NCBI GenBank assembly: GCA_045654405.1
Contig: JAZONH010000044.1
Coordinates: 56,817 to 120,816 of the forward strand
Direction: 5' to 3'
DNA: 64,000 nucleotides
Source: Acutalibacteraceae bacterium
Lineage (GTDB): Bacteria > Bacillota > Clostridia > Oscillospirales > Acutalibacteraceae
The translations under genes and the position numbers were made by a program. The notes under the pieces were generated by a model. The model saw only the letters and a list, made by a program, of their open reading frames with translations. It made no database searches and had not been told where the DNA came from. Below, in pieces: positions 28,913-63,801 of this stretch (within the stretch, counting starts at the first letter, position 1; each line of letters starts with the position of its first letter).

Positions 28913-28988
28913 ATGTATCATCGGAGGGTATTTATAATACTTATATCCGATGATATACTTGTTATACATTATAAAAGGAGATGTTTTT

Positions 28989-35529: not shown

Positions 35530-35542
35530 TTTTTCGCCCCCC

Positions 35543-35797: not shown

Positions 35798-35832
35798 AAT
35801 ATTTCCCCCTCGCAATTATGCGATTTTTTAAA

Positions 35833-36891: not shown

Positions 36892-36914
36892 GCCAATTTA
36901 TACCCCTTTGTAGT

Positions 36915-37847: not shown

Positions 37848-37918
37848 ACCCCTACATCATACTTTTTGTTTATCTGAAGTAAAAACACAAAAATGCCCTT
37901 ACTTCAAATAAACCTTCT

Positions 37919-37945
37919 CCCCGGTGCAGGCTGCCCTGCACCGGG
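37919..37945 (-). terminator. Strong GC hairpin in the only large gap of the operon, possibly a partial terminator or processing site
   Basis: CCCGGTGCAGG-(4 nt)-CCTGCACCGGG. On the minus strand it is followed by GAGAAGGTTTATTTG, and then by a second stem GAAGTAA..TTACTTC. Confidence 0.4.
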
Positions 37946-37964
37946 TTTGGTTTAGTTAATTATT

Positions 37965-40900
37965 TTATTTGGAATCTTTCTTTTTGCGTTTTTTCAAAGC
38001 AATGAGAAGGATTACAAGTGCTGCTGCACCAAGTGTTCCGCCAACAACACCCCAGAATACGGGCTGGTCGTTCCAGAAGCGAACGAAGAAGTTGGTTGAT
38101 ACAAGTACGCTTCCTGTGAAGCTGTCGGGAATGTTGTCTTTTGCTTCATCAGTTTTGCTTGTATCAAGAACTCTGCCTGAAAGGTCGGTAACCTTGATAA
38201 CAACTTTTTGCTGATTCTTGCTTTCTGCAAGTTCTATTTTACCAACAAAGTTATTGATATCATCACCTAAGGCTTCGCCCTCGTATGTTTTGCTATTGCC
38301 ATCAATAATAACTTCTACCTTTGCAATACCAATTGCATCGTAAACGGTGAATTCAACCTCTGTACCCTCGGCATTGATTTCAGTATACTTATTGTCTTTA
38401 TTTTTAGCTTCATCATTAAATGAAATATTTGTGATTGAAGGTAATGTCTTATCAACCTTGAACCACAGAACATCCTTAACCTGAGCAAATTTTTTATTAA
38501 ACGTGTTCTTATCCTCTTTATTCTGAGAATCATTGTTCACTTCGTCAGTTGAGGAAACAGTGATTTTATAAAGACCTTCAGCATTGAAGTTTTCGGCATT
38601 GATGGTATGAGCATATTCGTACCAACCTGTATTTTTACCAGGTGCGTTTGATGAAACAACATCATCGACAGGTCTACCGTCTCTTGAAATTTCAACCTTC
38701 AATGAACCGTCCTTAAGCTTGTTTGCATTGTACTCTGTAATAACAAGGTCGTCATTTACATCCTGAACATAACGATCATTAATAAGGTCAATAAGTGCAT
38801 CGCTGTAAACGTAAACAGAACCGAAACGGTTTACAACGAAGGTTCTTGAGGTTGTACTGCTATGATCAACCATATCGGTCATTTTTACAGTTAAGGTGTA
38901 AACGCCATCGTTATCACGAATCTTTTCAAATGTATTAAAGGTTCCCGAGCCGCCGTTTGCATTAATTACAACGCGGTTTCCGATGAACTTATCCTTTACA
39001 TCAACATCCTTTTCGTCAAAGCGTGTTCTTGTAAGAGTAATCTGATAGCTCTTATAGTTATCATCCTCAAATTTAACTCCGGGAATAACCTCGTCATCAA
39101 AGCCTAAGCCACCATTCGAGTTGCCCTGGAATGTAATAACAGGAGCATTGATCTTGGTATCGATAGTAAGCTGATTTGATTTGTAATCAGCCATATTGTT
39201 AGTTGCCTTATCTGCATATTTTGCGGTAAGAATGTAGTCGCCATCAGCGGTGAGTGTGAATGTTGCCACATGAGTGTTTACACTCTTATGAGTCCATTCA
39301 AGCTCAATTCTCTTATTCTTTGCACCGTCTTTTGAATATGCAACGTAGAAATCCTCGGGATTGTCAAAGTTTGCTTCGGTTACTGTGATTGTACCGGTAA
39401 TTTCGCCATTGTAGTAAGAAATACCGTTTGCAGTTGCATAAGGCTTGCTGTACTCAATTTTTGCCTTGGGTGAAATGTTATCCACAATAACACCTGTAAC
39501 GCTCTTTGTTTCAGCGTTATCTGCAGAGCTGTTTCCTGCTCTGTCTTTTGCAACAAAGTCAACTGCACCATGCATATTTTTCTTATCAGTCTTCAAAACA
39601 GTAACGGGCAACTTAAATGTTGTTGTTGCTGTTTTTCCGTCATCAGAAATTTTAATCTTATCAGCATTTACAGTCTGAACTTCAGCATCCTTATTTACTG
39701 TGCTTGTTCCTTCTGTCTTCTCATATGTAGCAGTAACGATATCAGCAAATGAAATATCATCCTCAACAGTAACCTCTATCTCAGCCTTCGCATTTTTATC
39801 CTTTGCGCCGCCAAAATAGCCGAATGTAATATTGTTAAGGATTGTTGTTGCTACATTGTTTATCTGCTTAACAGAAAGCACGGGGGCTGTTTTATCAACT
39901 GTAAAGTAATCGGGTGCGTAATCAGCTGCATCATTTTCAGCAAGGTCTGTGTAATCAATGTCAAATGTGTAGTTTGCACTGCCGGGATAGGTGATTGTCA
40001 TTGTATGAACATCACCGTCAGATGACCATTCTGATTCAGTACGAGTCTGATCTACATCTTCACCCGAAACATCCTGCTCGAGAATAGGAAGCTGAACCTC
40101 ATCAGCATTGAAGTTGTGCTCTGTGATTGTAATTGTAGCAACCTGTGTATCATCAAAATACTTTCTGTCTGCCTCAACGTGAGGATCGGGAAGAATATTC
40201 TTTACATCTGTATTTGCATATGCAACGTTAATCACGGGAGCTGTTGTATCGATAACGATTACTTCTGATTCATACGCTACAGCTTCGTTTGTTGACTTAT
40301 CTGTGTATGTAACCTTTACAACATAATCGCCGTCTGCAGAGTGATCTTCAGTAGCGGGAAGCTGGAATTCACCCTTAAATGTATCGGCAATAACTGTACC
40401 GTCGGCTTCTGTTGCCTGAGTCCATGTAATAGCGGGTGCTTCGATTTCAACGTTATCCTTTGTAACAACAAGCTTAACGTCTTCTTCATAGAAGTTAGCT
40501 TCTGTTGCTGTGATTGTACCTATAACAGTATCGTTATAGTAATGCTTGTTATTTACCTCGCGGTGTTCAGCATTGTATGAAACGCTTACCTCGGGAGCAA
40601 TGTTATCTACAACAGTAACTGTACCATCGTCTGTTACTGTTTCGGATTTGATACCATGATTATCAACAGCGTATGCGGTTAAGCTACCACGAAGCTGATC
40701 GAACTCAGCCATTGTCATGCTCTTGGGTAAAACAACTGTAGCTTCAAAGATATGCTTGTTGTTTTTATCCTGTACGGGTTTTACGTTGTCGATAATGATT
40801 TGTTCTTTATTTTTCTCGCTTGCGCCGTCTTCACGATTATACTCAAGAACGAATTTCTGCATTCCTGATGTGGCATCGGTTGAAGCAATAGTGATTTTTG

Positions 40901-43900
40901 TAGGAGCCTTAAAGAATTTGTATAAGATTTCCTTTACTTCGTCCTCAGCTAAGCCCAATGTTGCAACCTTTGCGATTACCTCAGCCACGGGAGTTTCGTA
41001 ACCGATTTTGGGTGCTGTAGGAGCCACTGTATCAATAACGAAGGTGTCGCTATTAACTGTAATAACATTAGCAGCAAGATCTGTATAAACAAACTCAATA
41101 TTATATACTGCATCGGGAAGCACGCCCGCTACATCATATGTAAGCACGCATTCATATTTGTTTGCGTCTGCCGGGGCCTTGGTCCAGTTATCAGGATTTT
41201 GAATATACGCATTTAACTTGTCTACAGTAACGTCCTTGCCATTGATATCCTTTGCATCAACGTTTACAACGAAGCCTGCAGCATCAAAGTTAACCTCAGT
41301 AACGGTTAATTTAACCATATAGTCTTCGCAAATACTGTTTGCATTGTTATGCTCAGCTTCCTCGTAAGTGAAAACGATTTCTGCATCTGTTACGTCGATG
41401 ACCATCTGGTCAGAAACAAATACGTCAATCTCTTTATCGTCAACCTTCATAACGTTTGTTGACTTATCCTTGTAAGAAGCCTCTACGGTATAAACACCTT
41501 CATTTTCAACTGTCGAGGGAACAGTTACGGTGAATACGTCAAACTCGCCTTCTCTTGCATAGTCGATTTGTACATCCGCAACCTCTGCGCCGTCCTTAAG
41601 AACACGGATATCACCGTTTTCTTTAAAGCCGTTGGTTTCTTTAACCTTTACTTTATATACAAGAGGTGCACTTTCGTTGAAATAATAAGTTTTTACAGAT
41701 GTTTCTTCATCTGTAACAGCGTTAACAGTATTAATATACTCAACGCTCATTTCGGGAGATACGTAGTCAATAATAACAGTATCGTCGCCTGTTTTCTTTG
41801 TTACGTTGCCCGCACGGTCATATGCTTCAAAGGAAACCTTGCTCTTGTACTCTTCGCCTTCTGCGATGGTAATTGTAGCGGTTGCCCTTGCGGTCTTACC
41901 GTCTTCAAGGTATTCGAAGTTTTCTACAGGGATTTCTTTATCACCATATTTGCAAACGAATCTCTGAATACCTGATAATTTATCAGTTGCTTCAAGTGTA
42001 ACTGTAACTGTATCCTTGAAGAACAATGTTTTAATGATGTCGCCGATAGAATCTTTTTCGGTGGAATATTCAATCTTCATTGATGCGGCATCAGGATTAT
42101 GCCTGTCAATTTTAAGATCCTGTAATACGCCGTTAATATTAATCTTTACATCAACGGGTGCATAGATATAACCCTCTTCATCGCAAAGATATACACTACG
42201 CTTATTCTGACCGTCGTCACCGAATTTAACACTGCTTGTAAATGCACTGTCAAGAGCTGCCTTAATCTGAGCTTCGTCATCAGCGATTTCAATTTTTTCG
42301 TGAGAAATAATTGTTGTATCCTGGCCATACTTCTGAGCCTTTGCAATTGTATAACCAGCCTTGGGAGTTACCTCAACCTCAGAATTAATCCAGCCTGTGC
42401 CTGTTAAAGACATAGCTAAGGTAAAGGGAGATTCGGAAGCGTTACAATAGCGAATATTGATAACGTAATAATCGGAATCGCTAATCGCAATCTTACCCTC
42501 GTTCTTTGTAGCAACTACCTTAATCTTAAGAAGGCCATTTGCTCTGTTAAGGTAAGCAATAAAGCTGTCAATATTGCTGATATAAACCTTACCTGTTGTA
42601 GCGTCGCAAGCAATACCACCGAAGGGCTTGTCGGATTCTACTGCAAAAATCTTGTAGGTAATATTTGAATCGTCGGAAGCCTTAATTGTTGTTGTAGCAG
42701 CAATATCGGATATTACATTGCTGTTTTTATTAACAAAATAATCGATTTCATCAGTTTCACCAAAGTCAACAAATGCTACACGATCGCCATTTGTATCCTT
42801 GGGAACAACTCTTACGTTAAGCTCGTGTGAAATTTCTTTTTCTGCATAGTTTGATGTTGCCGCAATTGTGGCAGTAACCTTGAATGTGCCGGGCTCTGTA
42901 ACAACAAGAAGACCCTTTGAGTCAATTGTTGCCTTACCGTCTGCACCAACAACCTCAACCTTATAAGCTACCTTTTCAGTTTTTGCCTGCTCTTCAGCGG
43001 TTGCGGCAAAATTGTATGCCTTGTTTATGGTGATTACATCACCAACCATAGATACGATTTCTGCATTTGATTTTGATGCTGCATTAGCATTAAAGGTAGA
43101 ATTGTCAAATTTGAATTCTCTGTCACCTGCGGTAATCATTGCAGTGACGTCGTATTCTGTAGCCACATAGTTTTTGTCATCAAGCTCTACACGAACCTTA
43201 ACGGGGTATGTACCAGCATCTTTAATTACGGGTACTGCCTGAGTCCATGTAGCGCCGTCATCAACGCTATATTCCGCCTGCTTTAATGACTTGCCTTCAG
43301 CGGGCTTAACCTCTACTGCTGCGTGAGAATTTGCATCATACGCACCACTGTAGGGAGCAAGTGTAACAACACCTGCGTTTAACTGTGCGGGTGTAATTGT
43401 AGCGGTAAATGTCTTTTCGATTTCGGATAAACCTTCGAATGATGATTTACCTACAACCTTTACGGCATATTCACCAACGTCTGTCTTTTCAGGAATAGTT
43501 GTGGTCTTTTCTTCACCGATATAGAAATCAAAGCTATAGCCATAGTATTTGGTTAAACCGGTAAAGTTTGTCTCTTTAAGAAGCTCCTGGGGCTCACCTG
43601 TGAAAACACCTGTTGTTGTTTTTGCAGTGAAGGTGATGTCAATTATTTTTGCAGTAACCTCAGTTACAAAATCCGTATAACCCGCTCTTTTTACGGTAAC
43701 CATCACCTTATATGTACCGGGCTTTGAAATCTGAGGTACTGTCTTGGTTGCCTCAGAGCCATCTATCTGGTAGAAAACCTCATCACCCTCCATTGTGCCC
43801 TGAACGCCAACTGCATCAAACAGCTGTGCCTTGCCTGTTGCATTGTCAGGCTTGCACTGTGTATTGAGAGGTGTAACAACAATACCTGTAATCTCGTTTG

Positions 43901-44285
43901 CTGTCATTACCACGTCGATATTTGCGTTTGCGGAAGCAATAGCCTCGCTGATATTTTTTGTTGCGTAGCCGTCCTTTGTAACGGTTGCTTCAACAGTAAG
44001 ACCATCTGCATAGTCAGCAGATGCAAGAATTGCTACTGCACCGTTGGCGTTTGTTGTCGCAGTGCCGCTTGTAACCTCGGCATCTGCGCTATCTTTAATA
44101 GTAAACGATACTGTGGCACCGCTTACCACTTCACCGCCGTCTTTAACGGTTACGGTAATAGCTTCGGGATAGTCCGTAGTTGCTGCTGAAACAGGAATAG
44201 CAGAAACGGGAACCATACCGAATACAAGTAACATTGTAAGTATTGCTGCTAAAACTTTTTTAGTAGCATTACCCATTTTACTCAT
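37965..44285 (-). CDS. Giant (2106 aa) Ig-like-repeat cell-surface protein with a Sec signal peptide and a C-terminal TM anchor
   Basis: Signal peptide KKVLAAILTMLLVFGMVPVSAIPVSA|AT. At least 8 modules bounded by D-x-x-(A/S)P-x-x-x-(V/I)-x-Y and containing T(I/V)TE.NF and Y..D.(A/S).N motifs. C-terminal WGVVGGTLGAAALVILLIAL + KKRKKKDSK. No LPXTG. Confidence 0.8.
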   Translation of the reverse strand: MSKMGNATKKVLAAILTMLLVFGMVPVSAIPVSAATTDYPEAITVTVKDGGEVVSGATVSFTIKDSADAEVTSGTATTNANGAVAILASADYADGLTVEATVTKDGYATKNISEAIASANANIDVVMTANEITGIVVTPLNTQCKPDNATGKAQLFDAVGVQGTMEGDEVFYQIDGSEATKTVPQISKPGTYKVMVTVKRAGYTDFVTEVTAKIIDITFTAKTTTGVFTGEPQELLKETNFTGLTKYYGYSFDFYIGEEKTTTIPEKTDVGEYAVKVVGKSSFEGLSEIEKTFTATITPAQLNAGVVTLAPYSGAYDANSHAAVEVKPAEGKSLKQAEYSVDDGATWTQAVPVIKDAGTYPVKVRVELDDKNYVATEYDVTAMITAGDREFKFDNSTFNANAASKSNAEIVSMVGDVITINKAYNFAATAEEQAKTEKVAYKVEVVGADGKATIDSKGLLVVTEPGTFKVTATIAATSNYAEKEISHELNVRVVPKDTNGDRVAFVDFGETDEIDYFVNKNSNVISDIAATTTIKASDDSNITYKIFAVESDKPFGGIACDATTGKVYISNIDSFIAYLNRANGLLKIKVVATKNEGKIAISDSDYYVINIRYCNASESPFTLAMSLTGTGWINSEVEVTPKAGYTIAKAQKYGQDTTIISHEKIEIADDEAQIKAALDSAFTSSVKFGDDGQNKRSVYLCDEEGYIYAPVDVKININGVLQDLKIDRHNPDAASMKIEYSTEKDSIGDIIKTLFFKDTVTVTLEATDKLSGIQRFVCKYGDKEIPVENFEYLEDGKTARATATITIAEGEEYKSKVSFEAYDRAGNVTKKTGDDTVIIDYVSPEMSVEYINTVNAVTDEETSVKTYYFNESAPLVYKVKVKETNGFKENGDIRVLKDGAEVADVQIDYAREGEFDVFTVTVPSTVENEGVYTVEASYKDKSTNVMKVDDKEIDVFVSDQMVIDVTDAEIVFTYEEAEHNNANSICEDYMVKLTVTEVNFDAAGFVVNVDAKDINGKDVTVDKLNAYIQNPDNWTKAPADANKYECVLTYDVAGVLPDAVYNIEFVYTDLAANVITVNSDTFVIDTVAPTAPKIGYETPVAEVIAKVATLGLAEDEVKEILYKFFKAPTKITIASTDATSGMQKFVLEYNREDGASEKNKEQIIIDNVKPVQDKNNKHIFEATVVLPKSMTMAEFDQLRGSLTAYAVDNHGIKSETVTDDGTVTVVDNIAPEVSVSYNAEHREVNNKHYYNDTVIGTITATEANFYEEDVKLVVTKDNVEIEAPAITWTQATEADGTVIADTFKGEFQLPATEDHSADGDYVVKVTYTDKSTNEAVAYESEVIVIDTTAPVINVAYANTDVKNILPDPHVEADRKYFDDTQVATITITEHNFNADEVQLPILEQDVSGEDVDQTRTESEWSSDGDVHTMTITYPGSANYTFDIDYTDLAENDAADYAPDYFTVDKTAPVLSVKQINNVATTILNNITFGYFGGAKDKNAKAEIEVTVEDDISFADIVTATYEKTEGTSTVNKDAEVQTVNADKIKISDDGKTATTTFKLPVTVLKTDKKNMHGAVDFVAKDRAGNSSADNAETKSVTGVIVDNISPKAKIEYSKPYATANGISYYNGEITGTITVTEANFDNPEDFYVAYSKDGAKNKRIELEWTHKSVNTHVATFTLTADGDYILTAKYADKATNNMADYKSNQLTIDTKINAPVITFQGNSNGGLGFDDEVIPGVKFEDDNYKSYQITLTRTRFDEKDVDVKDKFIGNRVVINANGGSGTFNTFEKIRDNDGVYTLTVKMTDMVDHSSTTSRTFVVNRFGSVYVYSDALIDLINDRYVQDVNDDLVITEYNANKLKDGSLKVEISRDGRPVDDVVSSNAPGKNTGWYEYAHTINAENFNAEGLYKITVSSTDEVNNDSQNKEDKNTFNKKFAQVKDVLWFKVDKTLPSITNISFNDEAKNKDNKYTEINAEGTEVEFTVYDAIGIAKVEVIIDGNSKTYEGEALGDDINNFVGKIELAESKNQQKVVIKVTDLSGRVLDTSKTDEAKDNIPDSFTGSVLVSTNFFVRFWNDQPVFWGVVGGTLGAAALVILLIALKKRKKKDSK

Positions 44286-44300: not shown

Positions 44301-44762
44301 TTATTTTTTTCTTTTTATTTCATTATAAATGTTTCCGTTTAATACGCCATGAAGACCCAAAGAAACAATCATTAAAAATAACAAAACGTAAATCACATAA
44401 GTATTATTATACTTTGTGAACATAAGCGCAATAAATGATATTACACTTGCCAAAAACACACCGTCGGCAATTGAGGCATACATATTTTTAAAAAACCTCA
44501 ACACACCGGGTATTTTTCTCTTAGGGATCTCATCCCCATGCTCCTGCTCGTGCCATTTTTTGTATTTCCATATCATTAACACAAAAAACACCAAGCTGAA
44601 TAAAAATCCTGCCCAAAAAACCGAGCCCACTATAATTACGGATATGTTGCTCTGAGCCTGCACCGAAAAAGGCATTGCCAGAAACGATGCACCTAAAAGC
44701 ACTGTAAAAAACAGGTACAAGCTCATTAACCGCCTGATTGTGGATTTTTTAATCCGCTTCAT
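44301..44762 (-). CDS. Small 4-TM membrane protein, unknown function
   Basis: 153 aa with four hydrophobic segments. Its start overlaps the upstream stop by 4 nt. Confidence 0.65.
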   Translation of the reverse strand: MKRIKKSTIRRLMSLYLFFTVLLGASFLAMPFSVQAQSNISVIIVGSVFWAGFLFSLVFFVLMIWKYKKWHEQEHGDEIPKRKIPGVLRFFKNMYASIADGVFLASVISFIALMFTKYNNTYVIYVLLFLMIVSLGLHGVLNGNIYNEIKRKK

Positions 44763-45547
44763 TCAATCACCTCGGCAGTATGAATCAGCATAACGTCATC
44801 AAGCGCCGACATTTCCTTCATAGGCACGAAGCTGGGCTTTTCTGTTGATTCATCGGTGAGAAGTGCGGTTTCATTAAGCGCCGCAGTCTCATCCCACGAA
44901 TCGTTATTATCCTGTACGTATAATGGTGCTGTCTCATCAAGAGGTGCGGTTTCGTCGCTCGACATAGCAGGCCTTGACTGCACGGGAACGTTGAGAGGTG
45001 CAGTTTCATTCAAGGGTGCGGTTTCGTCGCTACCGGCAAAATCCCTTGCGCTTACAGGAACGTTAAGAGGAGCCGTCTCGTTAAGGGGTGCAGTTTCCTC
45101 ACTACCTGTAAAGTCCCTTGAAAATACGGGAACGTTAAGGGGTGCAGTTTCATTGAGGGGTGCGGTTTCCTCCGACCCTATGCCTGCGCTGCGATTGTCC
45201 GCCGCAACGGGCATTGCAACCGGCTGAGGTGCTCTTTTGGCTGCTTTCTTTGCCTCTTTAGGCTCCTTTACAGCCTGCTTAGGTGCAGGTTTAGCTACAC
45301 TCTGCTCCATTGTTGCCGTAAGCTTACCGCGATTCTGGTTAACCTGGCTTGACTTATGTTCCTTTTTACCCGACTTTTCATTAAATTCACGCATCTGAGC
45401 AATGGATTTACGAGCAGTTTTACCGGATAAATCACCTATTACACTAGGGATTTTGAATTTTATAAATAGTATTACTGCTAAAAGGAGTGCAATCCCCGCA
45501 AAAACGAAGGAGATAATTGAAATTATTGATAGTACTTCTGCTGCCAT
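44759..45547 (-). CDS. N-terminally membrane-anchored protein with a tandem ETAPL-repeat tail
   Basis: 262 aa. TM VLSIISIISFVFAGIALLLAVILFI followed by KFK, which suggests a cytoplasmic C-terminus. A Lys/Pro-rich linker. Ten ETA(P/A/L)L motifs. Confidence 0.7.
   Translation of the reverse strand: MAAEVLSIISIISFVFAGIALLLAVILFIKFKIPSVIGDLSGKTARKSIAQMREFNEKSGKKEHKSSQVNQNRGKLTATMEQSVAKPAPKQAVKEPKEAKKAAKRAPQPVAMPVAADNRSAGIGSEETAPLNETAPLNVPVFSRDFTGSEETAPLNETAPLNVPVSARDFAGSDETAPLNETAPLNVPVQSRPAMSSDETAPLDETAPLYVQDNNDSWDETAALNETALLTDESTEKPSFVPMKEMSALDDVMLIHTAEVIE
44852..45175 (-). repeat. 72-nt (24-aa) in-frame tandem repeat, about 4.5 copies
   Basis: SEETAPLNETAPLNVPVFSRDFTG / SEETAPLNETAPLNVPVSARDFAG / SDETAPLNETAPLNVPVQSRPAMS / SDETAPLDETAPLYVQDNNDSW / DETAALNETALLTDE. 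Confidence 0.85.
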
Positions 45548-45550: not shown

Positions 45551-47284
45551 TTATTTCTCCTCCTTGAATTTATATTCGTTTTCTATCTTAACTTTATAGT
45601 TTTGGTGTTCACTGATGATTTTTTGTTTCATCTCTTTAGTGTACTTGTTGGAACCGCCATCCTTAACATCATTAGCCATTTCGTATACCCTGTCTAATAA
45701 GTCTATGAGTGTTCCTTTTTCAACATCAACACCGCTAAATTTTTCCTTGCAACTATTAAGCAGGCAAAATACTGCATAATAATAGCTAACTCTTTCGTAG
45801 TTACCTATTGTTGTATCATCTTCTATAGAATCAAGAGCTTTGTTTATGCCAACAAATAGCTTTTCACACTCATCCGTTGTAAGGTCGTACTTTGTATCCT
45901 CCGGTATGTAATGCTTCTGGAATTCACAAATTTCATACAAACTGTTTTCGTAGTATGACGGGGTATAGTTTTCGATTCCTTTGTTACGGTCAAGATATAT
46001 TATAGCTTTGTTGCATCGCTCTATAACACCATCATTTAACTGACCATCTTCATTTATGGAAACATAATCGAAATAACAAAGTATTGCCATTCGGAAATTG
46101 ATATCTGCGTAAACATCAGGCTTAGCTTTTTGAAGTTCAGCGCTATGGTTTTTCATTATATTACCATCTTCGTCTTTATTTCCGCCGTGGTAAATTCCTT
46201 CAAATTTAGCAAGGTCAACAGAGGTAAAGCCTTTTCCTTCGGAAACCTTGTCTTCATAATATTCTACTAATTTGAGATAAGCCTCTTCACGCTCAGGATA
46301 TAAAATAACCGCCTTTTGATACAAATCCAAATCCCCTGTACGATTAACATAAGCATCGTAGTTGTTTTCGTTGATTGCCTTTGCAGCCAATGCAGTACCA
46401 AGACCCGAAAAAGCCATAATTACGCTGAGTACGAACGGCACAACCGTAGCTATAACCTTACGCTTCTGCTTCTTCTTGTATCCTGATGTAATAAGGTCGG
46501 GATGCTCAAGGTCATAAATAAGGTCTGCGCAGCTCTGATATCTGTTTTCCTCGGCGGGCTGCACGCACTTGTCAATAATAAGCTCAATACCTTCTGAAAG
46601 GTTGGGGTTAATCTGTCTTACGGGGATATAACCATCACCCATTCTGGGGTCAACACCTGTAAGAAGGTTGTGCATTGTCATACCCAATGAGTAAATATCC
46701 GACCTGGGTGTTGTCTGGCCGTTGTATGCCTCGGGAGGAGCGAAGCCACGTGTACCAAGAACCTTTGTATCTGAAAGATTCTGCTCCTTATACTCACGTG
46801 CAATACCGAAGTCGATAATCTTAATGTTACCCTCGGGCTTAAGCATAATGTTAGCCGGCTTCATATCGCGGTAAACGATGGGACGGGGCTTCTGTGAATG
46901 GAGGTAGCTGAGCGCGTCACAAACCTGCTTAGCCCAGTCAATAACCTTTTCTTCGTCCTGAACGCCGAACTCTTTTAAGATTTTATCTAAAGATTCGCCT
47001 TCGATATAGTCCATAACAACGTAGATTGTAATACCGTTGTCAATGATATCAACTATACGGGGCAATGCGGGGTGGTCAAGGCGCTTCATAAGGTTGGCCT
47101 CAGCAAGCAAGCTGTTTACAACAATTTCATCGTTAGCGCCTGTTCCCTTTTTTCTGATTTCCTTAACAGCCCACTGCTTGTTAAGACGACGGTCCATCGC
47201 AAGGTAAACCGTGGACATACCGCCGCGTCCTATTTCTTTAAGTACTTCGTACTTACCATCAATTATTGTTCCTATCTCTGTCAT
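45551..47284 (-). CDS. Transmembrane Hanks-type Ser/Thr protein kinase
   Basis: 577 aa. GRGGMSTVY, WAVKEI, YRDMKPANIML, DFGIAREY, GTRGFAPPEAY. One TM (VIATVVPFVLSVIMAFSGLGTALAA). A ~270-aa helical extracytoplasmic domain. Confidence 0.85.
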   Translation of the reverse strand: MTEIGTIIDGKYEVLKEIGRGGMSTVYLAMDRRLNKQWAVKEIRKKGTGANDEIVVNSLLAEANLMKRLDHPALPRIVDIIDNGITIYVVMDYIEGESLDKILKEFGVQDEEKVIDWAKQVCDALSYLHSQKPRPIVYRDMKPANIMLKPEGNIKIIDFGIAREYKEQNLSDTKVLGTRGFAPPEAYNGQTTPRSDIYSLGMTMHNLLTGVDPRMGDGYIPVRQINPNLSEGIELIIDKCVQPAEENRYQSCADLIYDLEHPDLITSGYKKKQKRKVIATVVPFVLSVIMAFSGLGTALAAKAINENNYDAYVNRTGDLDLYQKAVILYPEREEAYLKLVEYYEDKVSEGKGFTSVDLAKFEGIYHGGNKDEDGNIMKNHSAELQKAKPDVYADINFRMAILCYFDYVSINEDGQLNDGVIERCNKAIIYLDRNKGIENYTPSYYENSLYEICEFQKHYIPEDTKYDLTTDECEKLFVGINKALDSIEDDTTIGNYERVSYYYAVFCLLNSCKEKFSGVDVEKGTLIDLLDRVYEMANDVKDGGSNKYTKEMKQKIISEHQNYKVKIENEYKFKEEK

Positions 47285-47296: not shown

Positions 47297-48067
47297 TCAC
47301 GACATTGTTTTAACAAGTAAAACTGAAATATTATCACGCTCACCACGTGATTTCACCAACTCAATAACGTGCTTTGCGTTGCTATGCATAGCCTGCTTAT
47401 GAGGAAGGACGCTTGCATCAAAATATTGTGCCAGCTCCTGGGGTGAAACCTGATGCCTGAATCCATCAGAGCAAAGCAGGTACACACCATTCTGTGTTTC
47501 GCCCACAATAACCTCAGGTTCAACGTCTCTTGAAGCACCAACGCATTGAAGAAGAAGATTTCGGCGACTGTCAACCCTTGCTTGCTCGGGAGTCATATTG
47601 CCGCGCCTTACTTCTCTTTCTACAAAGCTCTGGTCAATTGTCAGTTGCTTGAGACCCTTGTTTACGTAATATGCACGGGTGTCACCTACGTGAACGATAA
47701 GGTATTTACCCTCTACAAAAAGCATACCGGTAAAGGTTGTGCCCATATTCACGCCGATGCTTGCACCAAATTGTGAAATCTTAACGTTAAGCTGCTTGAG
47801 CATATGAGTCCACTTACCGCCGATAACCTCTAAATTGAGGTTACCTAATTCGTAGGGAAGCTCTTCTTCAAACCATCTTGAAAATTCTCTGATAACGGTA
47901 GCGCTTGCAAGCTCACCCTTCGCAAGTCCGCCCATACCGTCACAAACAACGGCAAGCATAACCTGCTTGTTATCCTTGTCATAAACAGCCTGCTTAACCA
48001 AAAGGCTGTCCTGATTAGTTTTTTTAACGATACCAACGTCGGTATCTGCAGTTGCTATATAATGCAT
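47297..48067 (-). CDS. PP2C-family (PPM) Ser/Thr phosphatase
   Basis: 256 aa. TDVGIVKKTNQDS, VVCDGMGG, VGDTRAY, LCSDGF, DNISVLLV. Confidence 0.85.
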   Translation of the reverse strand: MHYIATADTDVGIVKKTNQDSLLVKQAVYDKDNKQVMLAVVCDGMGGLAKGELASATVIREFSRWFEEELPYELGNLNLEVIGGKWTHMLKQLNVKISQFGASIGVNMGTTFTGMLFVEGKYLIVHVGDTRAYYVNKGLKQLTIDQSFVEREVRRGNMTPEQARVDSRRNLLLQCVGASRDVEPEVIVGETQNGVYLLCSDGFRHQVSPQELAQYFDASVLPHKQAMHSNAKHVIELVKSRGERDNISVLLVKTMS

Positions 48068-48082: not shown

Positions 48083-49822
48083 TTATACTTTAAACAAAAA
48101 GTCTTCATTAGCCAGTGTAATAGTGTCACCATCAAATATTTCTATTTCACAGTTGGGCATTACCATTCTGCCGTTAATGTAAGTCTTGTTTTTGGAATTC
48201 AGGTCTGTAATAAAATATCTGTTATCTCTGATAACAATATCCGCGTGGCTTCGGCTGATAACGTTACTGTTGCTTACGAAATAATCAACGTAACTACGCT
48301 CCTTGCCGATTCTGAAAACGGGCTTTGATATTTTAACAACCTCACCATTGAAAATACGCTTAAGAGTGGGATATTTAATATACTCTTTTGCCGGTGCAGG
48401 ACCATTACTATATGTATCCATTGGTGCAAAGGGCTCATCTGTAAGAAGATCTGTTTTGTCCTCTTCAAAAGCACCCGACATTACTGCAGGCTGGGGAGCC
48501 GGAGCAGGCTGCACGGGCTGGGGTGCGGGCCTTGCCGCAGGCTGGGGCGCCGGAGCAGGTTGCACGGGTTGGGGTGCGGGCCTTGCCGCAGGCTGGGGAG
48601 CCGGAGCAGGTTGTTTTATCTGATTAATCTCGCTTGAGTGAAGCTCATAAGCGGGCTTCATAGCAGGAGCATTGCCTGTAGGCTGTGCAACAGGGCGTGC
48701 GGGCTGGGGAACCGGAGCGGGTTGCACGGGCTGAGGTACCGGAGCAGGTTTTACTACAGGTGCCACCGGTGCTGCAACAGGCTGCGGTGCAGGAATGGGT
48801 TTAGCTACAGGAGCTTCGACGGGCTGAGGTGCAGGAACGGGCTGAGGCGCCGCTACAGGCTTAGCCACAGGAGCCGCAGGCTCATCTTCGATTAATAATC
48901 CTGTATTATCTTCCTCATCAACAATAGGAAGAACGGGCTGAGCCACAGGAGCAACGGGTGCTGCAACAGGCTGCGGCGCAGGAATGGGTTTAGCTACAGG
49001 AGCTTCGACGGGCTGAGGTGCAGGAATGGGCTGAGGCGCCGGTACAGGCTTAGCAACAGGTGCTTCAACAGGCTGGGGTGCCGGTGCAGGCACAGCCACA
49101 GGGACCTCGGGCTCATCCTCGACCAATAAAGCTGTGTTTTCTTCCTCGGCGAAAAGATCATCATCCATCATATCAGCGATATTTATTTCAGGCACGTTAT
49201 TGATATTAACCTCTTTAATAACGGGCTCCGGAGTAGGCTGTACAACTTTCTTGGGAGGATGACTCTTGTTAACAGCGTCAACCACCTTTGCATCCTCTGC
49301 TAAAATATATTGTTCAACAAGCTTATAATCATACTCTGCCATTGACTTAAGGAATGCACCGAATCGCTGGGCATATTCCATATCTGCCTCACGGAAGGGC
49401 TTAGCCATTGCTGAGATTGCTGATAAAAAGTTTATTAAATTATTTGCATTAGCTTTTGCCGTAGCAGGAACGTATGCCAATTGTAAATCCCAGGTTGTTT
49501 CATTTATGAAAATATATCTGAAATCCAACAACAGTTTATCGGGAGATAAGTTCAGTGACTTAATGTCGCGTACAATAGCCGCCGCCTGCTGCATAAGAAG
49601 CAAAAACTGAACCTTAGACATGGGCTCTCTGAGTCTCTCGCCTAAGGGAGTGCCATTCATACAAACAAACTGTACACCACTGCTCTGAACAGATGAACCA
49701 AGAATACCCTTTATGGGAGTCTGGGATACATACTTTGCTTCACCATTGATAAAGCCATCTGTTGGAGCAAACTCTAAAGAAAGAATCGTTGAATTTCCAT
49801 TTTTAGATATGTTAAATTGCAT
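48083..49822 (-). CDS. FHA-domain protein: DUF6382-like N-domain, a long Pro-rich repeat region, and a C-terminal FHA
   Basis: 579 aa. First gene after the consensus promoter. The FHA has GK (not GR), SRSH and SKNKTYING. Three acidic E(E/D).T.LL..DEP motifs. Confidence 0.75.
   Translation of the reverse strand: MQFNISKNGNSTILSLEFAPTDGFINGEAKYVSQTPIKGILGSSVQSSGVQFVCMNGTPLGERLREPMSKVQFLLLMQQAAAIVRDIKSLNLSPDKLLLDFRYIFINETTWDLQLAYVPATAKANANNLINFLSAISAMAKPFREADMEYAQRFGAFLKSMAEYDYKLVEQYILAEDAKVVDAVNKSHPPKKVVQPTPEPVIKEVNINNVPEINIADMMDDDLFAEEENTALLVEDEPEVPVAVPAPAPQPVEAPVAKPVPAPQPIPAPQPVEAPVAKPIPAPQPVAAPVAPVAQPVLPIVDEEDNTGLLIEDEPAAPVAKPVAAPQPVPAPQPVEAPVAKPIPAPQPVAAPVAPVVKPAPVPQPVQPAPVPQPARPVAQPTGNAPAMKPAYELHSSEINQIKQPAPAPQPAARPAPQPVQPAPAPQPAARPAPQPVQPAPAPQPAVMSGAFEEDKTDLLTDEPFAPMDTYSNGPAPAKEYIKYPTLKRIFNGEVVKISKPVFRIGKERSYVDYFVSNSNVISRSHADIVIRDNRYFITDLNSKNKTYINGRMVMPNCEIEIFDGDTITLANEDFLFKV
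48490..49145 (-). repeat. In-frame Pro-rich coding repeats
   Basis: A 51-nt unit in ~2.4 copies (48490-48612). A 189-nt unit in 2 copies (48768-48956 and 48957-49145) whose first ~104 nt differ at only a few positions. Confidence 0.8.
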
Positions 49823-49888: not shown

Positions 49889-49917
49889 ATTATATTCCCA
49901 AACAAAAAATTTGTCAA
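49889..49917 (-). promoter_or_regulatory. Consensus SigA promoter of the FHA...EssC operon
   Basis: The minus strand reads TTGACA (49917-49912), a 17-nt spacer, TATAAT (49894-49889). A ~60-nt leader ends in AAAGGAGAA before the ATG at 49822. Confidence 0.65.
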
Positions 49918-49990: not shown

Positions 49991-50037
49991 AAAAAAGCCG
50001 TATCCTCCGATAGAACAATGTTCTGCCGGAGGATATG
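49991..50037 (-). terminator. Rho-independent terminator of the glnA / SGNH-FHA-kinase transcription unit
   Basis: TATCCTCCG / CGGAGGATA outer stem with an inner AGAACA/TGTTCT stem. On the minus strand it is followed by TTTTTT. Confidence 0.75.
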
Positions 50038-50048: not shown

Positions 50049-52157
50049 TTATACAGTTTTTTTAAGATCTTCTGCCAAATCACTGCAACTGCCGTATCGT
50101 GCAGATGGGCTTATGGCAACACATTTATCGATTATTTCTTCAAGCTCTATCGACAACAACGGATTAATCTGTCGTATAGGTCTGTATTCATATTTTTTAG
50201 TGTTAGGCCCAACACCAGTCACTAAATGGTGCAAGGTCATACCCAGTGCATACACGTCGGTTCGTGCATCTGATTGTCGTCTGCCGAACTGCTCGGGAGC
50301 CGCGTAGCCCTTTGTTCCGAAGCAAGCGGTGTCGCTTTTTTTCTGCGCATCGTAACAACGCATAATGCCAAAATCTATAAGGGTTAAGCGCCCGTCATCC
50401 CTGCACATAATATTCGCAGGCTTAAGATCCCTGAATATTCTTGGGGGATTAAGTGTGTGCAGATAACCTAACACTTCACATAGCTGCATACCCCAATCAA
50501 CAACACGTTCCGGATCCTGAGCAGAATCCCTGTTAACAATTGCCTCCAGGGTTTCGCCCGTAATATATTCCTCAATAATGCACAAAAACTCGTCCGTTTC
50601 AACTATTTCATATATTTTGGGTATCATTGGATGGTCCAGTTCTTTTACTGCCGCAGTTTCCTTGAACACCATATCCCTAACAATTTTTGTGTATTTTTTA
50701 TCCTGCTTAAAGCACATTTTAGCAGCATAAAGTGCACCATCGGAAACATCCTCAACAAGGTATACTCTGAACGTTCCGCCCTTGCCCAACATACGCAAAA
50801 CTCTATAGCTGTTATCAAGCATAGAGCCTACAATATTTTTTTCGTTCAACAGCTTTTTCTTTTCGGGCTTGTGAGGAATTTGCTCTTCCTTATAGAAAAC
50901 AAATTTCTCGACGTGAGCAAAATCGATAACGTCGTTAATGCATAATTTGTGCATCTCACCCTTTTCGATTTTCTTGGAATTTATCCAAACGCCGTTAGTA
51001 GATGAATCCTTTATGAACCACGTATAATCGTCATAGTAAAACGTTGCGTGATTTCTTGAAATTTTAGGGCTGCTGATAACAATATCGTTATCCTCTGTTC
51101 GCCCTACTATAATTCTGCCTTTTTTAATAGCGGTAGTTGATCTGTTTTCCGACCACAAAACAAGGGTATCTGAGAAAAGCCTTTCTGTATGATGCTCCTC
51201 GGGCGGTACCTCAAACACACCCACTCGTGCTTCCTTTTTAAATCTGCCGCATTTATGGCAGCACAGTTGATTTTCCGTAGGTGTTTTACCAACAACCGAA
51301 AATTCATGGGCGTTATTTTTGCAATCCAGATATTTGTTGCCTCTTTCATCGGCAATTTCTCTAACCGCAAGAACCGCCATACTTTTCATTCCCGATACAT
51401 TCGGGTTTACTCCATCAAAGGTATCTATATGGATTTTAAATTTACTGAAATCAATTAATTTGCAATCATTTTTAACCGCAACTTCCCGTATTGCTCTGTT
51501 GAATTTTTCGATATCCTTATCTTTAAACTGCTTGAAAAAATCAAACTCAGGGTTTTGGGACATACAGGTAGTAAACAACGTAGCACACCATACCGCTGCA
51601 CTAGGATAACGTGCCTTGATATTATTCAGCATAATATCGTACGCAAAGGTAAATGACGTCTCATCCTCAACGTACCCGTACATATTTTTACCTATTTCCT
51701 CGTTGAAATAATTTTCAACACAACCGGTAACGGCAACGTCGCCAAGCCAGTCGCCGGCTCCCATTAAAACCATAATTACATCGGGTTCGATTGCGCCGGA
51801 ATGCAAATTGTACGTCCGCTCCTTGGAGCATCCGGATGGGAATAATTCTGCAAGGTCGGGCATTTTGGTAACGCGACTGTAGGCATAGGAATTATTAACT
51901 AATAATTCGCCACCGAAATAGTTTATAACCCTCTGCCACCAGGTACGGTTTTTATCTGAAATACCTGCTTTTACACAGTTTTCACCCTGATAAAATATTT
52001 GATATCCCGGGGGATTGAAGCCTGCAAAGGTGCTTACGGAGTCACCTAACACAGAAAATCTTTTACCGTAATATTTATTTGCTTTTCGCCAATCGGCAAA
52101 CTGCACGTTGCCTATACCGGCTAATCTTTCACTGGTTTTATCGTTATACACAGCCAC
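50049..52157 (-). CDS. Three-part fusion: SGNH/GDSL-like domain (probably inactive), FHA domain, and Hanks-type Ser/Thr kinase
   Basis: 702 aa with a GTG start 8 nt after AAAGGAGG. GDS block FSVLGDSVS. The block V position reads DGVNPN, not DGVHPN. FHA with VGR / SRNH / STNGVWIN. Kinase motifs GKGGTFRVY, YAAKMC, FRDLKPANIM, DFGIMR, GYAAPEQF. No signal peptide or TM. Confidence 0.75.
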   Translation of the reverse strand: MAVYNDKTSERLAGIGNVQFADWRKANKYYGKRFSVLGDSVSTFAGFNPPGYQIFYQGENCVKAGISDKNRTWWQRVINYFGGELLVNNSYAYSRVTKMPDLAELFPSGCSKERTYNLHSGAIEPDVIMVLMGAGDWLGDVAVTGCVENYFNEEIGKNMYGYVEDETSFTFAYDIMLNNIKARYPSAAVWCATLFTTCMSQNPEFDFFKQFKDKDIEKFNRAIREVAVKNDCKLIDFSKFKIHIDTFDGVNPNVSGMKSMAVLAVREIADERGNKYLDCKNNAHEFSVVGKTPTENQLCCHKCGRFKKEARVGVFEVPPEEHHTERLFSDTLVLWSENRSTTAIKKGRIIVGRTEDNDIVISSPKISRNHATFYYDDYTWFIKDSSTNGVWINSKKIEKGEMHKLCINDVIDFAHVEKFVFYKEEQIPHKPEKKKLLNEKNIVGSMLDNSYRVLRMLGKGGTFRVYLVEDVSDGALYAAKMCFKQDKKYTKIVRDMVFKETAAVKELDHPMIPKIYEIVETDEFLCIIEEYITGETLEAIVNRDSAQDPERVVDWGMQLCEVLGYLHTLNPPRIFRDLKPANIMCRDDGRLTLIDFGIMRCYDAQKKSDTACFGTKGYAAPEQFGRRQSDARTDVYALGMTLHHLVTGVGPNTKKYEYRPIRQINPLLSIELEEIIDKCVAISPSARYGSCSDLAEDLKKTV

Positions 52158-52198
52158 TCCGCTCGCCTCCTTTACAAAAAAATTAAGTGATTTATTAA

Positions 52199-53623
52199 TT
52201 AAAGATTATAGTACTTTTCGAACTCAACGGGGTGAGGAACCTTTGAAATTTCGCTGCACTCCGCACGCTTTGCCTTGATGAAGTTCTTAATAAGCTCCTC
52301 GGGGAATACGCCGCCTGCAGTAAGGTAACCGTAGTCTGCCTCAAGAGCATCAAGAGCTGCCTCAAGTGAAGTGGGAAGACCCTTAAGCTTTGCCTTTTCC
52401 TCCTCGGGAAGGTTGAAAAGGTTAAAGTCGTAGGGACCCCAACCGTTTGTACGGGGATCAATCTTATTCTTGATACCGTCAAGACCTGCCATAAGAATTG
52501 CTGCATAGCAGAAATAGGGGTTGCAGGTTGCATCGGGGTTACGAAGCTCGAAGCGACGCTTCACGGGAGCCTTTGCATAAGCAGGAATACGGATAACCGC
52601 ACTTCTGTTTGAGGTTGCATAACCAACGGTTACGGGAGCCTCGAAGCCGGGAACAAGACGCTTGAAGGAGTTTGTGCTGGGGTTTGTAATAGCACAAAGT
52701 GAAGAAATATGCTTAAGAAGACCACCGATGAAATAGTGAGCGGTTTCGCTAAGATTTGAGTAGCCGTTATCGTCGGAGAATACGGGCTCGCCTTCTTTGA
52801 ACAACTGAATATGAACGTGCATACCGCTACCTGCTTCACCATAAATGGGCTTGGGCATAAAGGTTGCGGTTTTGCCGTATTTAAGGGCAGTGTTACGGAT
52901 GATGTACTTGATCCACATTGTGTTGTCTGCCATTTTGGACATCTGACCGAGCTGGGGCTCAATCTCAAACTGACCTGATGCAGCAACCTCGGGGTGATGG
53001 TAGTTGATTTCGATGCCTGCGTCTGCCATATGTAAGCACATTTCGCTACGGCACTCATAGGTAAGGTCGAAGGGCTTTGCAATGTGGTAGTTCTTCTGCT
53101 TGGGAACTATAACGCCATCCCCTGCAACTGCACTGTTCCAGTATGACTGCTTAGCGTCAACGTCTGCGCTGATATTGTCGGGAGAAACGTTCCAGCCTGC
53201 CTGGTCGAAGAGATAAAATTCAAATTCGGGAAGAATGAGCATTGTATCTGCAATGCCGCTGTCCTTCATATACTGCTCAGCCGCAAGAACGATGTTTCTG
53301 GGGTACTGAGCCAGAGGTCTGTTGGCAGGTGAGTCAATAATCATTGCGTTACCTGTCATAGACAACGTGGGAATTGAGCAGAAGGGGTCGACAATGGCTG
53401 TATCGGGATCGGGGATAAACACCATATCGCTCTTTTCAACAACGGCATAGCCATAGTTTGAAGCGTCAAAGCCGATACCACTCTTCATGGTTTCCTCAGA
53501 AAAGTTCTCTGCTGGAATTGTAACGTGGCGGTACTGACCATTGATGTCAACCATCTTGAAGTCCACCATTTTGATGTCCTTTTCTTTGATAAGTTCAATA
53601 ATCTTATTAATTTTTTCTTGCAT
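52199..53623 (-). CDS. glnA: Glutamine synthetase, type I
   Basis: 474 aa. KPIYGEAGSGMHVHIQLF, RIPAYA, ELRNPDATCNPY signatures. Confidence 0.9.
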   Translation of the reverse strand: MQEKINKIIELIKEKDIKMVDFKMVDINGQYRHVTIPAENFSEETMKSGIGFDASNYGYAVVEKSDMVFIPDPDTAIVDPFCSIPTLSMTGNAMIIDSPANRPLAQYPRNIVLAAEQYMKDSGIADTMLILPEFEFYLFDQAGWNVSPDNISADVDAKQSYWNSAVAGDGVIVPKQKNYHIAKPFDLTYECRSEMCLHMADAGIEINYHHPEVAASGQFEIEPQLGQMSKMADNTMWIKYIIRNTALKYGKTATFMPKPIYGEAGSGMHVHIQLFKEGEPVFSDDNGYSNLSETAHYFIGGLLKHISSLCAITNPSTNSFKRLVPGFEAPVTVGYATSNRSAVIRIPAYAKAPVKRRFELRNPDATCNPYFCYAAILMAGLDGIKNKIDPRTNGWGPYDFNLFNLPEEEKAKLKGLPTSLEAALDALEADYGYLTAGGVFPEELIKNFIKAKRAECSEISKVPHPVEFEKYYNL

Positions 53624-53662: not shown

Positions 53663-53690
53663 ATTATAATATTTTTACTTTATTTGTCAA
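53663..53690 (-). promoter_or_regulatory. SigA-type promoter of glnA
   Basis: The minus strand reads TTGACA (53690-53685), a 16-nt spacer, TATAAT (53668-53663). Confidence 0.55.
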
Positions 53691-63135: not shown

Positions 63136-63801
63136 TCATTCCTCTATCTGCATTTGCTCCTTGTGAAATTTACGCACGGTTATAAACGCACCGATTACGC
63201 AATACAGGGCATAAACACCGTATATCAGATAGGTTAATTGACTTATGTCGTTGGCAACCATCTGTATATTCAGGAAAAGCCCCATAACCGCCTGTACAAT
63301 CCACAAATAGGTGTACTCGATATATGCGAGCATTGTAAGCACGGGAATAATAAAGCCAAAAAGCAGTGTGATGCTGTCAAGCACCGCATATTCATACTTA
63401 AAGTAATGTAATATCGCCGCAAGAATTGCCCAAAGGGCTAAGCCGCCAATACCTGCAACAACACGCACCTTGTTGGACATTCTTTTAAAAACAGCCGTTT
63501 TTGTTTTTTTGTAGGCGTTTTTCTTCCAGTTAAAGAAGGTCATAAGCTGTAGGGGGAAGCTGAAAAGGAATGCGGATGCCGCCGAGCCGTAAACACCCAT
63601 AAAAATATATGTAACCGTGTATAAAACCGCGTTACACGCTCCGATTAAAGCGCCGATTCGGTTTGCCTCGGACTGAAAGGACATAACGAAAAGGGAAACA
63701 AATAAGGGAAGCATAAGAAAAAACCTCTGCCTTGTAAGTATCCCTGCAACCAGTATGGCAACGCCCGTAAGAACGATTATTATGATTTTGGATTTTTTCA
63801 T
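63136..63801 (-). CDS. pnuC: Nicotinamide riboside transporter PnuC family
   Basis: 221 aa with 7-8 TMs. The W-rich FFNWKKN loop and overall pattern resemble PnuC. Confidence 0.65.
   Translation of the reverse strand: MKKSKIIIIVLTGVAILVAGILTRQRFFLMLPLFVSLFVMSFQSEANRIGALIGACNAVLYTVTYIFMGVYGSAASAFLFSFPLQLMTFFNWKKNAYKKTKTAVFKRMSNKVRVVAGIGGLALWAILAAILHYFKYEYAVLDSITLLFGFIIPVLTMLAYIEYTYLWIVQAVMGLFLNIQMVANDISQLTYLIYGVYALYCVIGAFITVRKFHKEQMQIEE

Follow-up and report, generated by a model that had tools for sequence, protein, structure and literature searches.

A soluble FHA-kinase with a conserved pseudo-SGNH domain, a candidate accessory component of a clostridial type VII secretion locus

The question raised by this locus is why a bacterium should encode, next to a large secretion locus, a protein kinase that is fused to its own phosphopeptide reader and to an esterase-like domain from which three catalytic residues have been lost. 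The locus lies in a stretch of 64,000 nucleotides from an Acutalibacteraceae bacterium (contig JAZONH010000044.1), referred to as the window; all positions are those of the window. The gene at 50049–52157 (minus strand) specifies a fusion protein of 702 residues, in which an SGNH/GDSL-like pseudo-hydrolase domain, a putative zinc ribbon, an FHA domain and a Hanks-type kinase domain follow each other. The reading that we favour, with a probability of about 0.55, is that the protein serves the threonine-phosphorylation module of a type VII secretion system (T7SS) as a soluble accessory kinase and that its SGNH part is a non-catalytic binding domain.

The gene starts with GTG, ends with TAA and is the sole long open reading frame (ORF) at its position; a ribosome-binding site (AAGGAGG, 52166–52172, minus strand) is located 8 nt 5' of the start codon. 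Orthologues of 79–82% identity were found in three metagenome-assembled genomes of uncultured Clostridia (L001–L003, labelled Clostridia, Acutalibacteraceae and Oscillospiraceae), and the GTG codon and ribosome-binding site are kept in these three loci. Pfam matches were obtained for Lipase_GDSL_2 (residues 37–241, 41.7 bits against a cut-off of 32.9), FHA (residues 349–413, 66.9 bits) and Pkinase (residues 451–689, 135 bits). The Kyte-Doolittle mean over 19 residues peaks at 1.37; since no segment of this length reaches membrane-like hydropathy, there is no transmembrane (TM)-like segment and the protein is taken to be soluble. These data agree with a first-pass annotation of the DNA, which had described a cytoplasmic protein of three parts (SGNH-like, Cys cluster plus FHA, and Hanks kinase), and all of the motifs quoted there (VLGDSVS, LMGAGDW, FDGVNPNVSG, C279-x19-C299-C300-x2-C303, GR/SRNH/NG, GKGGTF, AAK, FRDLKPAN, DFG and APEQ) are present in the translation. 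An exact-sequence look-up of the protein returned no record, and NCBIfam gave no family-level name, every match being far under its cut-off.

The SGNH/GDSL-like domain comprises residues 31–272 (51342–52067, minus strand), as judged from Pfam, alignment, AlphaFold2 and Foldseek. The AlphaFold2 model of residues 2–340, based on a 69-sequence alignment, has a pLDDT of 85 (more than 95 in the core) and a pTM of 0.82. The best Foldseek matches in the PDB, 4m8k and 4nrd (E of 2e-12, TM score of 0.81 on the target), are uncharacterised GDSL-like proteins of Bacteroides, which are also matched by sequence and have the fold, the GDS of block I and the Asp of block V in common with the fusion protein. 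Catalytic residues were compared in 101 aligned sequences, that is, the query and the 100 of 152 homologues of residues 1–330 that have a full-length domain. Ser40 (GDS, block I) and Asp248 (block V), both invariant in the family, are retained. The oxyanion Gly of block II (Gly in 99 of 101 sequences) is replaced by Tyr93, the oxyanion Asn of block III (Asn in 100 of 101) by Gly135 and the His of block V (His in 100 of 101) by Asn251, the query being the sole exception at the latter two positions. Block II has changed further, from NNSWSGS to NNSYAYS. In terms of the SGNH superfamily, the fold, the profile match and the block I Ser are present, and the block II Gly, the block III Asn and the Asp-x-x-His pair of block V are absent. 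The substitutions in blocks III and V had been spotted by eye in the first-pass annotation; the alignment confirms them and the pseudo-hydrolase reading built on them, and shows the degeneration to be deeper than was thought, with G93Y besides N135G and H251N.

The loss is confined to a small clade. In a wider set of matches, from an exhaustive search of 1.84 billion representatives, the S-G-N-D-H signature is complete in 146 of 177 domains, the remainder being mostly truncated; among 102 metagenome loci it is complete in 97 and reads SGNEH in one. Of the roughly 280 homologous domains, those without the His are confined to the window protein and its close orthologues, with the signature SYGDN in the window and L001 and SYSDN in L002, L003 and P0121. 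Tyr93 and Asn251 are invariant in the four orthologues, and position 135 is Gly or Ser. A sequencing error as the source of the substitutions was considered and ruled out, because three independent codon changes are fixed in four species. The restriction to the window clade also means that a degenerate esterase acting as sensor, as first proposed, cannot be the general logic of the family: its other members keep S-G-N-D-H.

Hydrolysis by the domain is very unlikely, because the general base and both oxyanion-hole residues are gone at once, whereas in the characterised SGNH lipase SrL the change of either the block III Asn or the block V His to Ala is by itself enough to abolish activity (PMC10779480). 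In principle, the domain could still be an esterase or acyltransferase of a non-canonical type, in which the retained Ser40 and Asp248 work with a relocated base; pseudo-enzymes sometimes have migrated catalytic residues (PMC10211241). No compensating His was identified, however, and we regard residual catalysis as highly improbable. As to selection, synonymous sites are saturated between the orthologues, and therefore only comparisons of the nonsynonymous rate (dN) between domains are usable, and not dN/dS. The dN values were 0.08–0.15 for the SGNH part and 0.065–0.12 for the kinase, and the linker of residues 426–448 evolved about three times faster. The dead domain thus diverges as slowly as the kinase and is under purifying selection; we conclude that it is a conserved pseudo-enzyme, predicted not to hydrolyse esters. 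These rates also bear on the notion that the domain has become a structural relic that binds no ligand or partner and serves, for example, in folding or dimerisation, the protein acting as a plain FHA-kinase. FHA-kinases without SGNH are indeed common among the closest kinase homologues, and the loss of three catalytic residues together with the NNSYAYS change points to a weakened constraint at the active site. One would expect a simple spacer to degenerate or disappear, though, and here the slow evolution extends over some 20% of protein divergence while the substituted positions are fixed; we consider a mere relic quite improbable. By its entry title, PDB 2w9x (a CE2 esterase) offers a precedent for an SGNH active site used in non-catalytic binding. 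The fusion protein differs from the SGNH superfamily in that its domain is cytoplasmic, joined to signalling domains and without three of the catalytic residues. Ligand binding by the pseudo-SGNH domain and the role of input device, both put forward in the first-pass annotation, are inferences.

The putative zinc ribbon (residues 277–310; 51228–51329, minus strand) consists of C279, H284, C299, C300 and C303, which are invariant in the four orthologues and lie on a three-stranded beta element in the AlphaFold2 model (strands at 285–309); relatives have Pfam matches to Zn_Ribbon_1 or DZR at the equivalent position. In the FHA domain (residues 320–425; 50883–51200, minus strand), the residues that contact phosphothreonine (pThr), i.e. 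Gly-Arg (G352-R353), Ser-x-x-His (S367-R-N-H370) and Asn-Gly (N388-G389), are intact and align with those of Rv1747 FHA-1 and FhaA (Rv0020c). These two are the best PDB sequence matches, and the FHA domain of Mek1 is also among the matches. The Hanks-type RD Ser/Thr kinase domain (residues 449–702; 50052–50813, minus strand) has a complete set of motifs (GKGGTF, K480, E500, FRD577LKPAN582, D595FG and APE), threonines T610 and T615 in the activation loop, and an end-to-end alignment with its best PDB match, PknB (E of 4e-26). The His of the HRD motif is Phe; PKA carries Tyr at this position. Motifs, Pfam and PDB matches are all in line with the earlier description of both domains as intact, and from sequence the kinase is predicted to be a catalytically competent RD-type enzyme and the FHA domain a competent pThr binder.

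The window protein belongs to a wider family. It has collinear full-length matches to P0127, P0132, P0133, P0134 and P0154 at 33–45% identity, and domain mapping together with Pfam gives the family plan as PARG_cat_microb – SGNH – (Zn ribbon) – FHA – (SseB) – Pkinase. Shorter forms are SGNH-FHA-kinase, SGNH-kinase, PARG-SGNH-kinase, PARG-SGNH-FHA and PARG-SGNH. The 102 loci were grouped into 33 lineages by 75% identity of the SGNH-bearing ORF. PARG-SGNH-FHA-kinase is found in 11 lineages, SGNH-FHA-kinase in four (the window included), PARG-SGNH-kinase in three and SGNH-kinase in one; those without a kinase are PARG-SGNH-FHA (three), SGNH-FHA (two), PARG-SGNH (five) and SGNH alone (four). Fusions of this SGNH family with a kinase occur in at least 19 lineages of Clostridia from gut and rumen, most of them ordered PARG-like–SGNH–FHA–kinase. 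The order SGNH-FHA-kinase is present in at least 20 clusters at 50% identity and in 15 of the 33 lineages, usually with an extra N-terminal PARG-like domain and occasionally with an SseB domain. The domain order is therefore not unusual in sequence space. The remark in the first-pass annotation that it has no known characterised example agrees with the literature searched: queries on DUF6382, SGNH plus FHA plus Hanks kinase plus macrodomain, DUF2263/PARG plus SGNH/GDSL, T7SSe/TseJ and SGNH pseudo-enzymes returned no paper describing such fusions, and only a paper on T7SS variants was relevant. The [PARG]-SGNH-FHA-kinase family of Clostridia appears to be undescribed. Two variations were also seen: P0123, P0124 and P0131 have an SseB N-terminal-type domain (PF07179) between FHA and kinase, and P0122 lacks FHA and carries an SGNH domain twice in tandem, ahead of a zinc ribbon and a kinase.

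The companion domain of most relatives deserves attention, as it may hint at the substrate of the active forms. Microbial PARG is fused to about one quarter of the best SGNH homologues and is found in 22 of the 33 lineages; a macro domain is found in one. GGG-x8-QEE is the catalytic signature of PARG, and it is complete in 19 of the 21 relatives checked. Members of the PARG (PF10021/TIGR02452)-SGNH parent family have SGNH domains that are 37–47% identical to that of the window protein, and these relatives keep both GGG-x8-QEE and S-G-N-D-H. No PARG is present in the fusion protein, and a search for a PARG-like gene found none in the window or in L001–L003. The window protein is thus a minimal member of the family, in which both PARG and SGNH catalysis have been lost.

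These fusions could be taken to mean that the protein is a sensor of an ADP-ribose- or NAD-derived signal, or a kinase coupled to the erasure of a post-translational modification, acting independently of secretion; the SGNH domain would then be a former ADP-ribose-ester enzyme that has become a binder, and the triggers might be ADP-ribosylating toxins, attack by phage or a shortage of NAD. Two neighbourhoods fit with this. The gene for P0134, an intact SGNH-FHA-kinase without a T7SS gene within 10 kb, is convergent with a gene for a 718-residue fusion of PARG with an ADP-ribosylglycohydrolase (DraG/ARH-like; L008:12393-14549, also in L009). In the Acutalibacteraceae locus L002, a 159-residue ORF of the Tpt1/KptA family (L002:9478-9957; PF01885, 33.5 bits against a cut-off of 26, with weak similarity to DarT) lies directly upstream of the orthologue, between it and glnA; this family is NAD-dependent and has the ADP-ribosyltransferase fold. 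The window protein itself has no PARG, however, nor does its locus or those of its orthologues encode one, and the PADLOC matches in the window are generic for kinase domains. Sensing of ADP-ribose would moreover be compatible with a role in T7SS rather than exclusive of it, and as an explanation that dispenses with secretion we find it rather improbable. An anti-phage defence locus was also considered and rejected, as the PADLOC matches were confined to those generic for kinase domains (mad6, PD-T4-6) and a weak one to PP2C. The window further contains nadC-, nadB- and nadA-like genes (15566–18793, minus strand) and a PnuC-like NMN-transporter gene (63136–63801, minus strand); their sharing the window with the fusion gene is probably a coincidence.

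The favoured reading, a kinase serving the T7SS, draws on the gene neighbourhoods across the family. At least one T7SS marker (DUF6382-FHA, EssC, YukD, WXG100, DUF4176 or TsxK-like) was found within 10 kb in 19 of the 33 lineages and in 13 of the 19 kinase-bearing ones. A T7SS locus makes up about 1–2% of such a genome (a rough, uncomputed estimate), by which measure the enrichment is large. One case is a human-gut lineage (L015–L018; for example, L015:5867-15731), where a PARG-SGNH gene without FHA or kinase parts is located inside a T7SSe/j-like operon of the same plan as that of the window, in the order TsxJ (DUF6382-FHA), PARG-SGNH, DUF805, PP2C, kinase, a 170-residue protein and a giant Big_13 protein. 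This operon adjoins integrase and toxin-antitoxin genes. The proximity in 19 of 33 lineages supports a regulatory link of the family to the locus of EssC, YukD, TsxJ, PP2C and kinase.

In the window, the secretion locus follows the fusion gene on the same strand. It begins with a TsxJ-like protein (48083–49822), composed of a DUF6382 N-terminus, a Pro-rich linker with three [DE]xT[AGD]LL motifs and an FHA domain at the C-terminus, and continues with a TsxF-like PP2C/PPM phosphatase identified by Pfam (47297–48067), a TsxD-like membrane Hanks kinase (45551–47284; N-terminal kinase, TM segment at residues 275–304 and a helical C-terminal region) and a TsxK-like single-pass protein (44759–45547), whose cytoplasmic tail contains at least 12 Thr-x-x-Leu motifs of the ETAPL(N/D) type. 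A protein with four TM segments is listed between the TsxK-like protein and a 2106-residue giant envelope protein; the latter, a second TsxJ-like FHA protein, a TadZ/MinD-like ATPase, YukD and EssC make up the rest (31021–44285). EssC (31021–35529) scores 1136 bits with TIGR03928 (T7_EssCb_Firm, cut-off 778) and YukD 31.5 bits with PF08817 (cut-off 27). DUF6382 was found with 35.8 bits in the 310-residue protein (cut-off 26.7) and with 24.2 bits, under the cut-off, in the 579-residue one. The contents match the T7SSb-related variants T7SSe/j/f as described by Garrett et al. (2024; PMC11217815), for which phospho-regulation of T7SSe/f/j via TsxD, TsxF and TsxJ has been proposed and in which no SGNH, GDSL, PARG or soluble FHA-kinase component is mentioned. 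The fusion kinase domain is 42% identical to that of the TsxD-like membrane kinase, and idiosyncratic motifs are common to both.

The repeated motifs are of particular interest. The first-pass annotation had drawn attention to a neighbouring "ETAxL protein"; its Thr-x-x-Leu repeats are real and conserved, and the TsxJ-like protein carries such motifs too. In the orthologues, the low-complexity sequence around these motifs (Thr-x-x-Leu in the TsxK-like tail, [DE]xT[AGS]LL in the TsxJ-like linker) changes fast while the motifs themselves are kept, which is how short linear motifs for phosphorylation or FHA binding behave. FHA domains prefer a hydrophobic residue at the pT+3 position. The TsxK-like tail is a candidate for both kinase substrate and FHA ligand. 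The linker contains long repeats rich in Pro, Ala, Val and Gln (PAPQPV...), and the tail contains tandem ETAPLNETAPLNVP units; the number of repeats in both varies among orthologues, with the Thr motifs retained.

A third kinase module is present beyond essC, on the opposite strand (26138–30917, plus strand). It encodes a 509-residue zinc-ribbon protein (26138–27667), a 144-residue protein of no family (27682–28116), a 245-residue Pkinase-domain protein (28113–28850) and a 655-residue OmpA/WG-repeat protein (28950–30917). In L011, a gene for an OmpA-like protein is found two genes upstream of that for the relative P0123, with an HD-domain gene between them.

Is the fusion gene then part of the secretion operon? 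Directly 3' of its stop codon there is an intrinsic terminator (49991–50035, minus strand), a 16-bp hairpin followed by a run of six T, which is kept in the four species with compensatory double changes in two of the pairs. A promoter-like TTGACA-17-TATAAT sequence (49889–49917, minus strand), also kept in the four species, precedes the TsxJ-like gene and the T7SS operon. On the other side, glnA for glutamine synthetase (52199–53623, minus strand) lies 41 nt upstream of the fusion gene with no terminator between, and is itself preceded by a promoter-like TTGACA-16-TATAAT (53663–53690, minus strand) and a terminator (53722–53697). Since there is no terminator between the two genes, and terminator and promoter separate them from the secretion operon, the fusion gene is probably co-transcribed with glnA. 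A riboswitch or leader does not explain the glnA–fusion unit, because an Rfam scan of the whole window gave no RNA family. The tie to the adjacent FHA-rich EssC locus that had been proposed thus holds in part: a functional link is supported by the 19 of 33 lineages, and a shared operon transcript is not, given the terminator and promoter in between.

This organisation could also suggest that the protein serves nitrogen or glutamine metabolism, being co-expressed with glutamine synthetase and regulating this enzyme or amino-acid metabolism via FHA–pThr interactions, with the proximity to T7SS genes incidental. Beside the short, terminator-free spacing, the perfect promoter before glnA and the conserved terminator after the fusion gene, synteny of glnA with the fusion gene holds in each of the four species, and there is a parallel with PknG/GarA and the glnX-glnH-pknG operon. 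PknG of actinobacteria is also a soluble Hanks kinase; it has a metal-binding, Cys-rich motif on the N-terminal side of the kinase domain, signals by FHA–pThr interactions through GarA/OdhI and is linked to glutamine genes in the genome. PknG has a TPR domain and no FHA or SGNH domain, however, with homology to the fusion protein shown at the level of the kinase fold only. Furthermore, of the 33 lineages only the window clade has glnA as a neighbour, against 19 with T7SS genes nearby; in L002 the inserted Tpt1/KptA-like gene separates the fusion gene from glnA; and because the four species are close relatives, their shared synteny weighs little. A primary role in glutamine metabolism is accordingly unlikely in our view.

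Several observations weigh against assigning the protein to the T7SS. The conserved terminator and the separate promoter split its gene from the T7SS operon; this makes it less apt to call the gene a member of the operon, and leaves the argument for a functional link untouched. In 14 of the 33 lineages no T7SS marker was detected within 10 kb (four of these are on contigs of less than 7 kb), the marker search relied on phmmer with single sequences as queries, and the phylogenetic independence of the lineages is incomplete. No WXG100 protein was seen in the 64-kb window, as judged from the lack of a W-x-G motif among the 14 free small ORFs (motif only, no profile search); the WXG partners or secreted substrates may be encoded elsewhere or be too divergent for detection. 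The first 250 residues of EssC contain two FHA-like regions (IGTGVD... and IGARADS...) that by eye are without the canonical GR and SxxH and reach an E of only 0.007 with Pfam FHA, unlike the TsxC of T7SSe/j, in which they are described as conserved. Because these domains look degenerate, phospho-control may bypass EssC itself. Finally, the kinase substrates, the FHA ligand and any SGNH ligand rest on inference.

With these points in mind, we propose a mechanism that starts from the observed domain content, residue states, selection, family membership and genomic association. The fusion protein would be a cytoplasmic accessory kinase of a threonine-phosphorylation module that controls the adjacent T7SSe/j-like machine and that would consist of the TsxD-like membrane kinase, the TsxF-like PP2C, the TsxJ-like FHA adaptors and the TsxK-like Thr-x-x-Leu repeat protein. 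Its FHA domain would dock on pThr-x-x-Leu motifs of the TsxK tail, the TsxJ linkers or a kinase activation loop, these having been primed by the membrane kinase or by the fusion kinase itself. Docking would concentrate the kinase at the apparatus and thereby propagate or amplify phosphorylation, and the PP2C phosphatase would return the system to its start state. The pseudo-SGNH domain, kept by purifying selection, would serve in binding or regulation without catalysis; its ligand may be the ester that the active relatives hydrolyse, possibly a group that is acylated or linked to ADP-ribose, or else a protein partner. The gene would be uncoupled transcriptionally from the secretion operon and probably be expressed with glnA.

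Known systems provide parallels for parts of this scheme. The components of T7SSe/j/f, that is TsxC (EssC), TsxB (YukD), TsxD, TsxF, TsxJ, TsxK, the giant envelope protein TsxI and the TadZ-like ATPase TsfV (PMC11217815), are all found in the window locus; the fusion kinase domain is a paralogue of that of the TsxD-like kinase, and its gene differs in being a separate transcription unit. In type VI secretion systems (T6SS), a trio of kinase, phosphatase and FHA adaptor is likewise encoded with the secretion machine (PpkA, PppA of the PP2C type and Fha1/TagH in Pseudomonas; TssL-Fha in Agrobacterium), and docking of FHA on pThr is the assembly switch (cited in PMC11217815). NCBIfam gave a weak match to the TagH FHA and, for the 310-residue FHA protein of the locus, a weak match to OdhI. 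The present case concerns another secretion system and another phylum, and the fusion kinase is soluble, has its own FHA domain and pseudo-esterase and stands beside a second, membrane-bound kinase. Rad53, Chk2 and Mek1 combine a pThr reader and a kinase in one chain, as does the fusion protein. Rv1747 is an ABC transporter and not a kinase, and its FHA domain binds pThr-x-x-hydrophobic motifs in disordered linkers. SGNH domains and zinc ribbons are absent from all of these proteins and from FhaA, and the eukaryotic kinases are members of other kinase groups. Overall, a Hanks kinase with an FHA domain and phospho-control of secretion systems are known already; what is new is the link, at the level of a family, between ADP-ribose- or ester-processing domains, FHA-kinases and T7SS loci, to which the dead esterase adds a modest twist.

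A bolder interpretation, which we put forward as doubtful, is that the [PARG]-SGNH-FHA-kinases form an unrecognised input branch of the T7SS, one that couples the removal or sensing of ester modifications to assembly or firing driven by threonine phosphorylation. If this is true, the modifications could be ADP-ribosyl or O-acyl groups, originating, for instance, from incoming ADP-ribosyltransferase or NADase toxins or from endogenous NAD-dependent enzymes, and the circuit, which would sense damage and fire back, would have its analogue in the TagQRST-PpkA pathway of T6SS. Evolution would in that case have ended, in the window protein, with an eraser turned into a pure reader that binds without cleaving.

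Little is known of how the T7SS of Firmicutes is switched on post-translationally, and the 2024 survey of its variants recorded just the presence of kinases, phosphatases and FHA proteins. The present analysis adds a recurrent family of soluble multi-domain kinases as a possible T7SS component, and the apparently active PARG-like and esterase domains that its members often carry provide candidates for the input signal and, with the conserved threonine motifs, for the phospho-sites. The window member, with kinase and reader intact and an esterase that is dead yet conserved, is a natural separation-of-function variant and clearly illustrates how a bacterial signalling protein can take up a pseudo-enzyme as a regulatory module.

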